Origin: an uncultured Chloroflexia bacterium
GTDB lineage: Bacteria; Chloroflexota; Limnocylindria; Limnocylindrales; CSP1-4
Length of the DNA: 64,000 nucleotides
Direction: 5' to 3'
Assembly (NCBI GenBank): GCA_963776385.1
Contig: CAVZME010000009.1
Span: 134,440 to 198,439, forward strand
Shown here: positions 31,982 through 47,216 of the stretch, piece by piece
How positions within the stretch are numbered: the first letter of the stretch is position 1
Layout of the letters: each line of letters starts with the position of its first letter
Notes under the pieces: model-generated
The model's input: only the letters and a program-made list of their open reading frames with translations
Databases searched by the model: none
Told to the model about the DNA's origin: nothing
Made by a program: the position numbers and the translations under genes

Positions 31982-32404
31982 ATGCAGGACGACCGACCCA
32001 TCTCGGTCCTCATCCTGTACGCCCATCCACTGTTGGGCGAAGGACTCGCCGACCTGCTGGCGGCCGAGCCGGGACTCGAGGTCGTCGCCGTGCGGATCGA
32101 CGACTCCGGGAGCGCCGAGCGCGCCCTGAAGGCGACCCCGCAGGTGATCATCTTCGAGCGTGGCGAGCCCGACCGCGCGGTCGAGATGCTCGAGTTCGCG
32201 CCTGACGCGCTGATCATCGACATCGGGATCGGCTCGGGACGGACGTTCACCTATCGCCGCGACGAGATCGCGGCCGTGCCCGACGCGATCGTCGCGGCGA
32301 TCCGGGCCGTGCCGGCTCGGCCGGCCGGCGCCCGAACGCCCAAGTCCGAGCCATCGCGGCGGCCCGAACCGCACCTCGTGACACCGGGCTCACCCGGACG
32401 ATAG
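31982..32404 (+). CDS. Stand-alone atypical (pseudo-)receiver domain protein
   Basis: It has a CheY-like alternation (ISVLILYAHPLLGEGLADLL...VVAV...PQVIIFERGEP...ALIIDIG). The acidic pair is replaced by YA, and the phospho-acceptor position reads E in IIFERG. Confidence 0.55.
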   Translation: MQDDRPISVLILYAHPLLGEGLADLLAAEPGLEVVAVRIDDSGSAERALKATPQVIIFERGEPDRAVEMLEFAPDALIIDIGIGSGRTFTYRRDEIAAVPDAIVAAIRAVPARPAGARTPKSEPSRRPEPHLVTPGSPGR

Positions 32405-32550
32405 AGATCCGGCCACATCGAGGCCCGGGCGCACCTGTACCCGTTTTCTACCGCCCGACGGATGGGATCGGCCTGATCCGGACGCCACGATGGCGATGAG
32501 GGGCATCGGCCCTCGAACGCGCTCGCTGGCGCCCAATCGACAGGTGTCCC

Positions 32551-33535
32551 ATGCACATGGAACGACGGCTCACGAGCCCATCGGACCGGACGACGAAACG
32601 ACTGATCATCGGGTCGATCCTGGTCCTGGCTATCGGCATCCCACTCATCGTGGTCCTATACCTCTTCGACCAGTACCACACCCCCGGCCCCAGCCTCGTC
32701 GAGCGCGACATCCTGGTCGCCGAGGAGGCAGTGACCCAGAACCCGAACCTGCTCACGGCGCGCCTCGCCCTGGCCGGGGAGTACGCCAAGAACGGCAGAC
32801 TTGCCGACGCGGTCGCGCAGTACGACCAGATCCTGACCGCCGAACCCGATGCCGGAGCTGCCCTTCTCGGACGGGGCGCCGTCGAGATCGCCCTGGATCA
32901 GCTCGACGCCGCGCAGGCCGACTTCAGCAAGGTCGTCGCGGCCGCCGAGGGCGGTGAGATGGCCAACGCCGATCCACAGCTCGAATCGGCCTACTTCAGC
33001 CTCGGTTCGATCGCGCTCGAACAGGGTCGCGCACAGGACGCCGTCATGGAGCTGGCCAAGGCGATCGCGATCAAGCGGACGGACGCGGACGCGCTCAACC
33101 TGCTGGGGACCGCGCTCCTCCGGGTCGGCGAGCCACAGCGTGCCGTCACCGCCACTCGGGCAGGCGATCGCCCTGGTCCCCATCGGCTGGTGCGAGCCGT
33201 ACACCCAGCTCGAGGCCGCCTACACGGCCCTCGGAGACACCGACGGCGCCGGATACGCGGGTGGCATGGTCGCCCTGTGCCAGGAGCGGCCGGCCGACGC
33301 CAAGGCGAAGCTGACGCCGCTGACCACCGGCAAGTACGCCGTCGATGCCCTCGTCGGCCTCGGTCTCGTCGCCGAGGTCCAGAACGACACGGCTGCCGCG
33401 CAGGACGCGTACACCAGAGCAGTCGCGGTAGAACCGACCAACTTCGGTGCCGTGACAGGCCTCGGGCGGGTCGGCGGTGCGCAACCCAGCGGCCCGGACG
33501 CCACGCCGTCCGGCGGACCGACAGGCGGTGGCTGA
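32551..33535 (+). CDS. Membrane-anchored TPR-repeat protein (one frame change near 33150)
   Basis: N-terminal TM helix LIIGSILVLAIGIPLIVVLYLF. The TPR-like units include ARLALAGEYAKNGRLADAVAQYDQILTAEPD, AYFSLGSIALEQGRAQDAVMELAKAIAIK and ALVGLGLVAEVQNDTAAAQDAYTRAVAVEP (the last in ORF 32849..33535). Confidence 0.7.
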
Positions 33536-33536
33536 C

Positions 33537-44931: not shown

Positions 44932-44934
44932 CCG

Positions 44935-46591
44935 ATGGCGGGACCGCCGCGGCGCCGAGACGCTCGACGCCTCGGCGGCATCGTCCGACAGCCGTGACGC
45001 GTCTCCGTCGGGCGGATCCGCTCGCCGATCGCCCGTCCGCTCCGGCGCGGATCCCGCATCCGAGCACTGCGCACCAGGCGTGGCCGGTTCGTCGTCCTCG
45101 TCCTCGTCGCCGGCTTCGGGGTGGCGATCGCGGTCGGGGGCGTGGCAGCCATGAGCTGGACCGAGACCGCCGACTTCTGCGGCCGCTGCCACACGATGGA
45201 CCCGGAGCTCAAGGCGTACGAGATGTCGCGCGCATCGCGAGGTCCCCTGCGCGGAGTGCCATGTCGAGCCCGGCGTCGTCGGCTGGGTCAAGGCCAAGCT
45301 CAACGGCACGCGTCAGCTCATCGGCGTCCTGACCGGGCACCTTCCCGACACCGATCCCGGCACCCGATCACGCCGATCTGCCGCCGACGAGCGCGACCTG
45401 CGTCCGCTGTCACGATCCGAAGGCGCTCGTCGCCAACGGCGGCCCGGTCAAGCTCGTCATCCAGGAGCAATTCCACGGAGGACGAGCCGAACACCAAGGA
45501 CACCATCGCCCTGGTCCTCCGGCCGGCGGGCTTCGGCGACCCCGAGCCAGGCCCGCGGGCGTGCACTGGCACATCGACTCCGAGGTGGACTACATCGCCG
45601 CCGACCCGCGCGCCCAGACCATCGACTACGTGACGATCAAGGAGGACGACGGCGCGTCGGAGGAGTTCATCGCCTCGTCCCAGGTGACCGACGTCGGGCG
45701 AACGTCCAGCCCGACATCGACCGGCTGAAGGCCGAACGGGGCCACCCGCCGGATGGACTGCATCGACTGCCACAACCGGGCCGGCCACGGCATCCCGACG
45801 CCGGACCAGGCCATCGACGACTCGCTGTCGACCGGCGCGATCGACGCAGAGACCTGCCCTACATCAAGCGCGAGGGCGTCGATCGCTGTCGAACCGCGAC
45901 TACGCCTCGGTCGGCGGATGCGGACCGGGCGATCGCCGCGCTGCGGCTCGTTCTACGAGACCCGCTACCCGCTCGTGAGCCGAGTCGCAGGCCGCCGAGG
46001 TGGACGAGGCGATCGCGGACCTCCAGCGCATCTACCGGCTGGTCGCCACGCCCGAGATGCGCGTGACCGGGACGACCTACCCGAACAACCTCGGCCACCA
46101 GTCGGCACCCGGCTGCTTCCGCTGCCACGACGGAGCGCACTACAAGGTCGAGGACGGGGTGCTCACCAAGCAGGCCATCCCGTCGTCCTGCGCGACCTGC
46201 CACACGTTCCCGCAGATCGGGTCGACCGAGTCCGGCGTCCTCATCGGCCAGCGACCGGCGAGCCACGACGATCGACTCTGGGTGTTCGACCACAAGTCGA
46301 GCGCATCCGCGCTCGATCCTGCAGGTACGGCCTGCGGCGCCTGCCACACGCGCACGTACTGCGAGAGCTGCCACAAGACCGCAGCGGTCCAGGTGAAGCA
46401 CGACGACATGATCTTCAACCACGCGGAGGTGATGAAGAAGACCGGCGCCCAGGGCGTGCGCCTACTGCCACCAGCCGGCGTACTGCTCCCAGTGCCACGC
46501 GGAGCCCGTCCTGCCGAACCCGTTCAGGACCGATCCGTCCGCCAGCCCCCCGGCTGTGCTGCCGGACCCCGTCCCGTCGCGCACGCCATGA
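44935..46591 (+). CDS. Membrane-anchored decahaem c-type cytochrome with a NapC/NirT(NrfH/CymA)-like N-terminal module (many frame changes as sequenced)
   Basis: The TM helix is FVVLVLVAGFGVAIAVGGVAAM, followed by TETADFCGRCHTMDPELKAYEMS.H..VPCAECHVEPGVVGWVKAKLNGTRQL, the NapC/NirT signature. There are ten CXXCH motifs in total: CGRCH, CAECH, CVRCH, CIDCH, CFRCH, CATCH, CGACH, CESCH, CAYCH, CSQCH. The stop is at 46589..46591. Confidence 0.8.
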
Positions 46592-46604
46592 AGGAGGTCC
46601 GCCG

Positions 46605-47216
46605 GTGACGATCACTGCCCAGCGGGTCCCGAGGGGCTCGGGCTGGATGAGCATCCAGGAAGCGTCGAACCTGATGGGCGTGTCTCCGGCCACCCTCCGG
46701 CGGTGGAGCGATGCCGGGCGGATCCGGACGTTCACGACACCCGGCGGCCATCGACGGTTCAGTCGCGCCGCCGTCGACGCCCTGCTCCCGGACGACGCGA
46801 CGGCCACCCCGCAGGACCACCGACCGGCGATCGACACCGACCTCCCGTGGTTCGTCGCGCTCGATCCGGGGACGCGCCGGCGGACGCGTCAGCAGGTCCA
46901 CCAGATCGCCGAGGCACTGGTCTCGGCGACCGTCGGGCGAACGGCGGTGGAGCGGGACTACGCGTTCAGCCGGGCCGAGATGGCCACGACCCGCTGTGCG
47001 GTGCTGGCGGCCGGATCCGGCGTCGGTCTTCGCGAGACGGTCGAGGGATTGTTGACGTTGCGCGGCCGATGTCTCAAGGCGATCGACGATCCGGGCTCGG
47101 TCGGCGGAGACCAGGAACGGGCGTCGGTCGCGTCCGTCGAAACCCTGACCGGCCTGCTCGACCGGCTGCTGTGTCATGCGATGCGGGCCCACGAGGCCGC
47201 GAGCGGCCGATCCTGA
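46605..47216 (+). CDS. MerR/excisionase-type HTH DNA-binding protein
   Basis: AAGGAGG lies 7 nt before the GTG at 46605. MSIQEASNLMGVSPATLRRWSDAGRIRTFTTPGGHRRF is an HTH_17/MerR-type motif. The frame is intact within ORF 45753..47216. Confidence 0.7.
   Translation: MTITAQRVPRGSGWMSIQEASNLMGVSPATLRRWSDAGRIRTFTTPGGHRRFSRAAVDALLPDDATATPQDHRPAIDTDLPWFVALDPGTRRRTRQQVHQIAEALVSATVGRTAVERDYAFSRAEMATTRCAVLAAGSGVGLRETVEGLLTLRGRCLKAIDDPGSVGGDQERASVASVETLTGLLDRLLCHAMRAHEAASGRS

Follow-up and report, generated by a model that had tools for sequence, protein, structure and literature searches.

Conserved Limnocylindria gene block for multihaem cytochromes related to ImdcA and, remotely, to OmcS: a candidate monoderm electron conduit

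The 64,000-nucleotide stretch of DNA analysed here, called the window throughout (contig CAVZME010000009.1 of an uncultured Chloroflexia bacterium), carries at positions 31982-47216 a block of plus-strand genes for three multihaem cytochromes, TPR and NHL-repeat proteins and a cytochrome c maturation system, which stands behind a sensor kinase/response regulator pair. We consider it probable that this block is the Limnocylindria version of a monoderm multihaem electron conduit, encoded along with its regulators and maturation genes. The membrane-anchored decahaem cytochrome matches ImdcA of the Thermincola pathway, and the secreted hexahaem cytochrome appears to be a remote homologue of OmcS of Geobacter; the electron-conduit reading is therefore strengthened by both relationships.

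Three cytochromes and their relatives

At its N-terminus the decahaem protein combines a transmembrane (TM) helix with a Cytochrom_NNT module (PF03264; 43.2 bits for the corrected sequence against a cut-off of 24.1, profile positions 9-102 of 174), and its first haem motif has the form CXXCHXM (CGRCHTM), which together are the characters of a NapC/NirT/NrfH-type cytochrome. When the protein was compared by BLASTP with Thermincola ImdcA, the sequence of which was taken from the supplement of PMC7911101, it matched at 30% identity over 119 amino acids (E = 6e-13), with a second, C-terminal high-scoring segment pair at E = 3e-7, and ImdcA likewise matched the orthologous decahaem gene in 51 related loci. 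Judged by these alignments, the decahaem protein is homologous to ImdcA, a membrane decahaem cytochrome that has been purified and characterised electrochemically (PMC7911101). In tblastn searches of the window and of 80 related loci, OcwA found no match and PdcA found only weak ones, to the ImdcA-like gene, and no PdcA counterpart was identified.

The relation of the hexahaem protein to OmcS is carried by family profiles. Members of the hexahaem family are typically 420-460 amino acids long and carry a signal segment, and a profile built from 40 of them had OmcS (6ef8) as its top match among 177,635 PDB sequences (E = 3.8e-4), in an alignment that was colinear at haems 1/2, 3 and 4. An OmcS family was collected from the database with a query 94% identical to the entry 'c-type cytochrome OmcS [Geobacter]', and the comparisons used database sequences only. 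With hhalign, the hexahaem family matched the OmcS family at 98.7% (E = 2.9e-16) and OmcS itself at 97.2% (E = 3e-11), and the OmcS family matched one hexahaem-family member at 96.8% (E = 2.2e-10), each of the three matches covering a different colinear segment. As controls, the OmcS profile was compared with the other three multihaem proteins of these clusters, which gave 14%, 2% and 44%, and the hexahaem family was compared with the decahaem protein, which gave 14%. A MAFFT profile merge placed the six CXXCH motifs of the two families in the same columns. Nine conserved His columns of the hexahaem family coincided with OmcS in this way, namely the six proximal His and three '+3' His after haems 1, 3 and 5, while the other three conserved His of the two families fell in matching inter-haem segments. 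The '+3' His after haem 1 corresponds to OmcS His16, the ligand of haem 5 in the neighbouring subunit of the OmcS filament. These comparisons point to a remote, superfamily-level homologue of OmcS that lies outside the OmcS/OmcT/OmcJ clade.

The genomic neighbourhoods of the two proteins are also alike. The gene directly 5' of Geobacter omcS encodes an NHL-like protein (GSU2505) that is similar to the propeller of the window (E = 1e-11), and a YncE-type propeller gene follows the OmcS-like GSU2501. The propeller-led block downstream of Geobacter omcS has been connected with the maturation and secretion of OmcS (PMC12977616). In the window the NHL and hexahaem genes overlap in the sequence TGATG (34617-34621), where the stop codon of the former shares bases with the start codon of the latter, which suggests that the two proteins are translationally coupled.

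Two features of the hexahaem protein stand apart from its relation to OmcS. The tail of the family is conserved as G..P...P and closes on Pro (in the close homologue P0002, G450 and P457 are the invariant residues; 36340-36366 in the window), and it may be what the TPR or NHL partner recognises. As a C-terminal extension (36075-36366) the protein carries a small beta domain with the pattern HGF..GD.V....NG.Y.V..V...F, which is inserted once or twice within longer paralogues in relatives (L002:8010-9920; L003:8132-9916). The sole hint of similarity for this domain was to the UBA1 FCCH domain (E = 1.2).

The third cytochrome is of the surface type. Its N-terminal hydrophobic segment is followed by a Pro/Thr linker of about 110 amino acids, by approximately three Ig-like domains and then by the haem domain. 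An AlphaFold2 (AF2) model of residues 145-505, from the linker to the haem domain, reached a predicted local distance difference test (pLDDT) value of 84 and contained about three predicted Ig-like domains; Foldseek matched this stalk to integrin leg domains and to Gram-positive adhesin stalks (AgI/II C123, SspB and PrgB). Five homologues (P0242, P0244, P0246, P0255 and P0257) carry LamG-like (PF13385) or PKD (PF00801/PF18911) modules that either replace the Ig-like stalk or are added to it, which suggests that this octahaem family is presented at the surface in a modular fashion. With the hexahaem family the protein shares only its first dihaem module (97.3%), and a single-sequence search of the PDB with the octahaem domain returned nothing meaningful. 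The full-length search was swamped by Pro/Thr-rich words and returned about 18 true relatives. Members of the octahaem family always end in Tyr.

With eight haems, one of them in an unusual CX3CH motif, the stalked protein could recall a catalytic cytochrome, and weak NrfB/NrfH-type matches point the same way; one of the three cytochromes would then be a nitrite reductase, a hydroxylamine oxidoreductase (HAO) or an octahaem tetrathionate/sulfite reductase, and the block would serve nitrogen or sulfur metabolism. We regard this as very improbable. All matches of the window cytochromes to the NrfA, NrfB, NrfH, TorC and DsrJ models were far below the cut-offs, NrfA scored E = 5.8 against the hexahaem profile, and OcwA, itself an NrfA/octahaem-like terminal reductase, found nothing. 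The motif CXXCK was not seen in the printed sequences of the window cytochromes. The initial annotation had judged by eye that none of the three looks like NrfA or HAO, and the searches agree with it, no match to a catalytic family having come near its cut-off and OcwA-type proteins likewise giving no match. An NrfA/HAO-type identity was thus rejected on scores far below the family cut-offs.

Gene order, host lineage and reading frames

The G+C content of the window is 68-72%, and raw lists of open reading frames (ORFs) were dominated by spurious frames. A third-position GC plot together with a codon-usage Viterbi path showed that coding on the plus strand runs without interruption from about 29.4 to 47.2 kb, and within this block the coding path switched frame repeatedly. 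The gene set (Table 1) was therefore built by joining frames and then by frameshift-aware alignment of proteins to the DNA against intact orthologues. With Pfam and NCBIfam, the content, common direction and order of the genes that had been proposed for 31982-47216 were borne out, many of the genes being readable only after frame correction. The order behind the GAF/NarL pair is as originally described; the count of fifteen genes behind the pair is reached only when the pair is included, thirteen genes following it. The tally of 24 haem-binding motifs in the three cytochromes is correct (6 + 8 + 10). By hydropathy, the first TPR protein, the NHL protein, ResA and the three cytochromes each have one hydrophobic segment, at the N-terminus. 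Scans for promoters and terminators gave matches no better than those in shuffled sequence.

Table 1. Genes of the block and of the regulator pair before it, with the number of the 80 related loci that carry a counterpart
Product	Position	Strand	Features	Loci (of 80)
Sensor histidine kinase	29398..31183	+	GAF, HisKA_3, HATPase_c (Pfam); two N-terminal TM segments; 2 frame changes	57 (kinase/regulator)
NarL/LuxR-type response regulator	31165..31855	+	Response_reg + GerE; 1 frame change near 31633	57 (kinase/regulator)
Small receiver-like protein (pseudo-receiver)	31982..32404	+	Orthologue of 188-aa gene at L003, 43% identity	
Membrane-anchored TPR protein (first TPR)	32551..33535	+	TPR_16 and related; TM 12-30; 1 frame change near 33148	70
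Membrane-anchored NHL-repeat beta-propeller	33537..34619	+	NHL E = 7e-23; TM 41-59; intact ORF	75
Secreted hexahaem cytochrome	34619..36366	+	Six CXXCH; Paired_CXXCH_1; 1 frame change near 35838	
Surface-type octahaem cytochrome	36437..39251	+	7 CXXCH + 1 CX3CH in C-terminal domain; 1 frame change near 38560	71 (octahaem domain)
PCYCGC/CYCXC-family putative lipoprotein	39430..39978	+	PF13798 E = 7e-22; NF041379; signal segment ending ...PAFAAC	15
Second TPR protein, bitopic	39992..41085	+	TPR families; weak TPR_CcmH_CycH match; TM 140-158; ~6 frame changes	65 (preceding ccdA)
CcdA	41089..41835	+	DsbD_TM (PF02683); multi-TM; 62% identity to L003 orthologue (corrected); ~4 frame changes	57
ResB/CcsB	41851..43350	+	PF05140 E = 8e-55; ~10 frame changes	56
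ResC/CcsA	43354..44252	+	PF01578 Cytochrom_C_asm E = 4e-46; intact W-rich motif (11 residues); ~8 frame changes	55
ResA-like anchored thioredoxin	44290..44925	+	AhpC-TSA/Redoxin PF00578 E = 2e-20 (corrected); WCQPC; TM 31-49; ~8 frame changes	53
Membrane-anchored NapC/NirT-type decahaem cytochrome	45001..46591	+	Ten CXXCH (corrected); TM 20-38; ~10 frame changes	51
MerR/HTH_17-type DNA-binding protein	46647..47216	+	Pfam; adjoins conserved module	1

Conservation was counted by tblastn of the corrected window proteins against the 80 related loci. Wherever the contig reaches, the genes follow one another on one strand in the order kinase, regulator, TPR, NHL, hexahaem, octahaem-type, TPR, CcdA, ResB, ResC, ResA and decahaem, and gene calls on three related contigs gave the same order, the genes being intact in short-read metagenome-assembled genomes (MAGs). 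From kinase to decahaem the block keeps its colinearity in about 50-75 of the 80 loci and is thus under selection; colinearity in that many independent loci places the arrangement far beyond chance. The first TPR gene stands directly 5' of the NHL gene in 70 of the loci. The PCYCGC gene is optional, and the MerR-type gene, which had been counted as part of the block, lies outside the conserved module, having a counterpart in a single related locus. An exhaustive profile search with the hexahaem family, among representatives at 50% identity, returned 1512 sequences with E <= 1e-3 and 382 with E <= 1e-30. One locus with the full cluster, L049 (VEOW01000005.1), belongs to the MAG 'MnB_4 Mn-Chloroflexi-1', possibly from a manganese-related enrichment, and offers a lead on the external partner.

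Several of the smaller genes were characterised further. The pseudo-receiver matched no Pfam family and showed weak N-terminal similarity to NarL/NarP. A ScyF-type identity for the NHL protein was rejected, the scores being far below the family cut-offs. The second TPR protein is predicted to cross the membrane once, near its centre, with its N-terminal part in the cytoplasm and its TPRs outside, and is perhaps an apocytochrome chaperone; the 'J-like' part that had been ascribed to it is without Pfam support. The System II set of cytochrome c maturation is complete within the block, comprising CcdA, ResB, ResC with its W-rich motif and ResA with a CXXC motif. An apparent deletion in ResC relative to L003 was rejected as such, as it reflects an insertion specific to L003, and ResC is full length when compared with seven orthologues.

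The initial annotation had called the genome Actinomycetota-like, which the closest relatives of both the cluster and its flank contradict. More than 1100 homologues of the hexahaem protein were found by a word-indexed search, and every named one is from a Chloroflexota or Candidatus Limnocylindrales MAG. When one genome was scanned for each GTDB species, 188 relatives emerged, and nearly all of the 77 best loci are labelled 'Candidatus Limnocylindrales/Limnocylindria', 'Chloroflexota/Chloroflexi bacterium' or 'uncultured Chloroflexia', the last being MFD long-read MAGs; an actinobacterial label is attached to three of these 77 loci, all on contigs shorter than 7.4 kb. Outside the cluster, the flank gene at 27852-29074 has 86% protein identity to the edge of the Rifle MAG RBG_16_69_14 (RIF-CHLX). 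On the evidence of these matches the host belongs to the Chloroflexota, class Limnocylindria, alias Ellin6529, RIF-CHLX or Edaphomicrobia (bioRxiv 10.1101/2021.08.23.457424).

The frame changes bear on whether the genes are functional, and they are very unevenly spread. Frameshift-aware alignment counted 0-2 per gene between 29.4 and 40.0 kb and about 47 between 40,015 and 46,576, in the second TPR, CcdA, ResB, ResC, ResA and decahaem genes. The initial annotation had allowed that the block might be a dead relic, in which case the frame changes would be genuine mutations of a decaying locus. Some 47 changes in 6.5 kb fit such decay, as does the public record, in which the deposited sequence carries the same changes and truncated products (P0001 and P0241) are identical to the window. 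The frame-junction sites, furthermore, show no homopolymer enrichment and are therefore not explained by the kind of error usual in nanopore reads, which counts against treating the genes as functional parts of a conduit. Set against this, the corrected proteins of the broken genes are as close to their L003 orthologues (62, 44, 65, 46 and 53% identity) as those of near-intact genes (53, 52 and 45%), the GC3 (third-codon-position) bias is kept in every fragment, and five apparent in-frame stops were attributed to the alignment itself.

The distribution of the frame changes beyond the block speaks more directly to their origin. Patches are spread over the whole window, with several frame changes in an MMPL transporter and an ABC transporter that are unrelated to the block, and dnaG (13338-15222, minus strand), which stands upstream of rpoD (11589-13301), has a frame change near 14564 within the conserved ...GGRLLEGD|GPKYLNSPATP... 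motif. As dnaG is essential and yet broken like the genes of the cluster, assembly error is indicated. When five test genes were compared across 77 loci, dense patches of 11-25 frameshifts occurred only in MFD long-read MAGs (L001/L005, L014, L035, L039, L044, L053, L072 and L075) and struck different genes in different MAGs, whereas loci from short-read MAGs had 0-1 frameshifts each in the same test. The frame breaks are thus most likely long-read assembly errors rather than decay, and we take the genes to be functional; that the block is a relic we hold, on this indirect evidence, to be highly unlikely. Dense frameshift patches appear to be a systematic quality problem of high-GC long-read MAGs, and the lesson of this locus is that such patchy indel errors can mimic a pseudogene field in an intact operon.

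Two observations concern the first part of the window. The coding signal across positions 1-9000 is weak and fragmentary, with long stretches that are non-coding by the codon model (for example 2163-3493) at a similar G+C content. Within this region, 5827-7037 on the minus strand encodes a protein of three tandem repeats of about 135 residues (..SLTHCTN..CQGDY..DAATG.EVGT..FECF..DTG..L.H.PG..I.L..RGQI..).

Electron flow through the block

In the route we propose, the decahaem protein would exchange electrons with the menaquinol/quinone pool at the outer face of the membrane, and the OmcS-like hexahaem protein would relay them across the wall; in doing so it may stack or polymerise into a chain, much as has been suggested for CwcA of Thermincola. 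The NHL and TPR proteins, both anchored, would dock or assemble the hexahaem chain, and the stalked octahaem protein, the first dihaem module of which matches that of the hexahaem protein, would form the outermost contact with an extracellular partner. CcdA, ResA, ResB and ResC would mature the 24 haem sites, perhaps aided by the bitopic TPR protein as a chaperone of apocytochromes, and the GAF kinase/NarL pair would control expression. Under a shortage of oxygen, respiratory electrons would most likely be exported, with Fe(III)/Mn(IV) minerals or humic substances as acceptors. A membrane-to-surface route had been put forward in the initial annotation, and the parts it needs are present (a NapC/NirT-type decahaem cytochrome, a hexahaem and a stalked octahaem cytochrome, NHL and TPR proteins and System II). 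A stronger version, in which the hexahaem protein polymerises like OmcS into a wall-crossing wire with an NHL/TPR base and the octahaem protein as cap or tip, seems to us a speculative and rather unlikely extension.

Several points weigh against the conduit. A phmmer search of the PDB with the single hexahaem sequence found nothing meaningful, OmcS included, in keeping with the remoteness of that relation, and an AF2 model of the close intact homologue P0002, made without haems, had a pLDDT of 42 and was too poor for a fold search. No PdcA-like or OcwA-like protein is encoded in the window or the 80 loci, so the route differs from that of Thermincola. The System II genes, which the initial annotation took to be dedicated to the cluster, may be the housekeeping set of the genome and its one maturation system, and in 13 relatives the cluster is adjoined by genes for a Rieske/cytochrome b complex with a decahaem cytochrome anchored at its C-terminus (L002:17432-20518; L003:1-2251; L001:3641-6725), which hints at a connection with ordinary respiration. 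This complex, absent from the window, might provide another point of entry on the quinol side. The usual description of Limnocylindria is of aerobic heterotrophs, a habit that fits uptake of electrons or an internal respiratory role equally well, and we know of no experiment on any member of the lineage and of no isolate.

The aerobic habit leads to the view that the same hardware carries electrons inward, in a soil organism of aerobic or microaerobic habit. Fe(II), Mn(II) or reduced humics outside the cell would be the donors, and the quinone pool, or else a bc-type complex and an oxidase, would receive the electrons. Records of the lineage come mostly from oxic soils and waters, the Rieske/cytochrome b/decahaem complex of the 13 relatives would suit such a flow, and L049 comes from the MAG 'Mn-Chloroflexi-1'. 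Descriptions of the lineage include no anaerobic metal respiration (PMC13212565, bioRxiv 10.1101/2021.08.23.457424), and multihaem conduits are reversible elsewhere, as in Mto/Mtr and Uet (PMC10734462). On the other side, NapC/NirT-type proteins and ImdcA are known chiefly for oxidising quinol, no Cyc2-, MCO- or MopA-type oxidase is encoded in the window, and sequence sets no direction. We favour electron export, but the aerobic way of life of the class makes uptake a rival to be taken seriously; as an explanation of the block in its own right, inward flow is in our view unlikely.

The maturation genes and the adjacent complex can also be read more modestly, as a housekeeping maturation operon with carriers of the wall (pseudo-periplasmic) space that pass electrons from quinol to ordinary reductases or oxidases, with no extracellular partner. 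The ccdA-resB-resC-resA genes lie within the block in every relative, the Rieske/cytochrome b complex is adjacent in some, and the decahaem protein is similar to cytochromes of the NrfH/NapC type that donate electrons to soluble enzymes. A second ccdA-resB-resC-resA set is not known. This explanation leaves unexplained why no reductase or oxidase gene occurs in the cluster in any of the 80 loci, why the octahaem protein has a 110-amino-acid Pro/Thr linker and an Ig-like, adhesin-type stalk, with LamG/PKD modules in its homologues, and why the hexahaem protein has OmcS as a relative and an NHL propeller as partner. We consider it improbable, somewhat more so than inward flow, and retain the export conduit as our preferred reading.

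Limnocylindria (Ellin6529, RIF-CHLX) are among the commonest uncultured Chloroflexota of soils, aquifers and lakes and are treated as ordinary aerobic heterotrophs. If the reading is true, the conduit would let them exchange electrons with minerals or humic matter, which bears on the turnover of iron, manganese and carbon in soil, and a polymerising hexahaem protein would give them extracellular respiration or electron uptake of the cytochrome-nanowire type. The pairing of an NHL protein with an OmcS-like cytochrome would then be an ancient module common to monoderms and diderms. The OmcS relation and the matching position of the NHL gene make the block a test candidate for cytochrome wires in monoderms outside Bacillota, and for the role of the ever-present propeller partners.

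Comparison with known systems

The initial annotation knew of no characterised equivalent, but a monoderm analogue exists: the closest known system is the pathway of Thermincola potens and T. ferriacetica, which consists of ImdcA, PdcA, CwcA and OcwA (PMC7911101, PMC6703420). CwcA is a homologue of OmcS at 18% identity and has been proposed to cross the wall as a stacked chain (PMC7911101). The two systems share a monoderm host, a membrane decahaem cytochrome with a NapC/NirT-like N-terminus, which in the window is homologous to ImdcA, an OmcS-related hexahaem cytochrome, the window protein and CwcA being linked only via OmcS, and a separate outermost multihaem protein. They differ in that the window cluster has neither a PdcA-like soluble decahaem protein nor a homologue of the nonahaem OcwA, its outermost protein being instead a linker/Ig-stalk octahaem cytochrome of another family, and in that the cluster includes two-component regulators and the whole System II set. 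The hosts are likewise distinct, Chloroflexota as against Bacillota, and the lineage described here is mesophilic and from soil or freshwater.

With the omcS locus of Geobacter sulfurreducens (GSU2505, OmcS, OmcT, GSU2501; PMC12977616) the block shares a hexahaem protein of about 430 amino acids with six alignable haem motifs and nine alignable His columns, an NHL-type propeller gene immediately 5' and, in Geobacter, more beta-propeller partners in the locus. The relation between the hexahaem proteins is, however, very remote and detectable by profiles only, and filament formation, established for OmcS, is only a possibility for the window protein. No outer membrane, porin or PpcA-type partner belongs to the window system, and its TPR partner, stalked octahaem protein and ccs genes have no place in the Geobacter locus.

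Propeller partners recur beside OmcS, OmcE, DFE, Uet and Dethiobacter cytochromes (PMC12977616, bioRxiv 10.1101/2025.10.22.684050, PMC5815863, PMC10734462, PMC10376724), and clusters combining NHL, TPR and multihaem proteins have been described in Dethiobacter alkaliphilus (PMC10376724). As in the window, the Dethiobacter, DFE, Uet and OmcE clusters place an NHL or other beta-propeller protein, sometimes with a TPR protein, beside extracellular multihaem cytochromes and include a CymA/NapC-like quinol-side cytochrome. Their cytochromes are, in contrast, MtrA/MtoA-like, OmcE-like or SmhB/OmhA-like, their hosts are mostly diderms with porins, and none of the clusters is colinear with that of the window. 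The maturation genes correspond to the Bacillus subtilis-type System II in having all four components with their signature motifs, and differ from it in being embedded among multihaem cytochrome genes behind the bitopic TPR gene.

We found no published description of this cluster in the literature on Limnocylindria/Ellin6529, Chloroflexota or OmcS-like cytochromes. Monoderm multihaem conduits with NHL/TPR partners are already known, and the cluster is an undescribed variant of them. It stands apart from them by its occurrence in a different phylum, its distinct and deeply diverged OmcS-like family, its new stalked octahaem protein in the terminal position and a fixed gene order, operon-like and taking in the regulators and System II.

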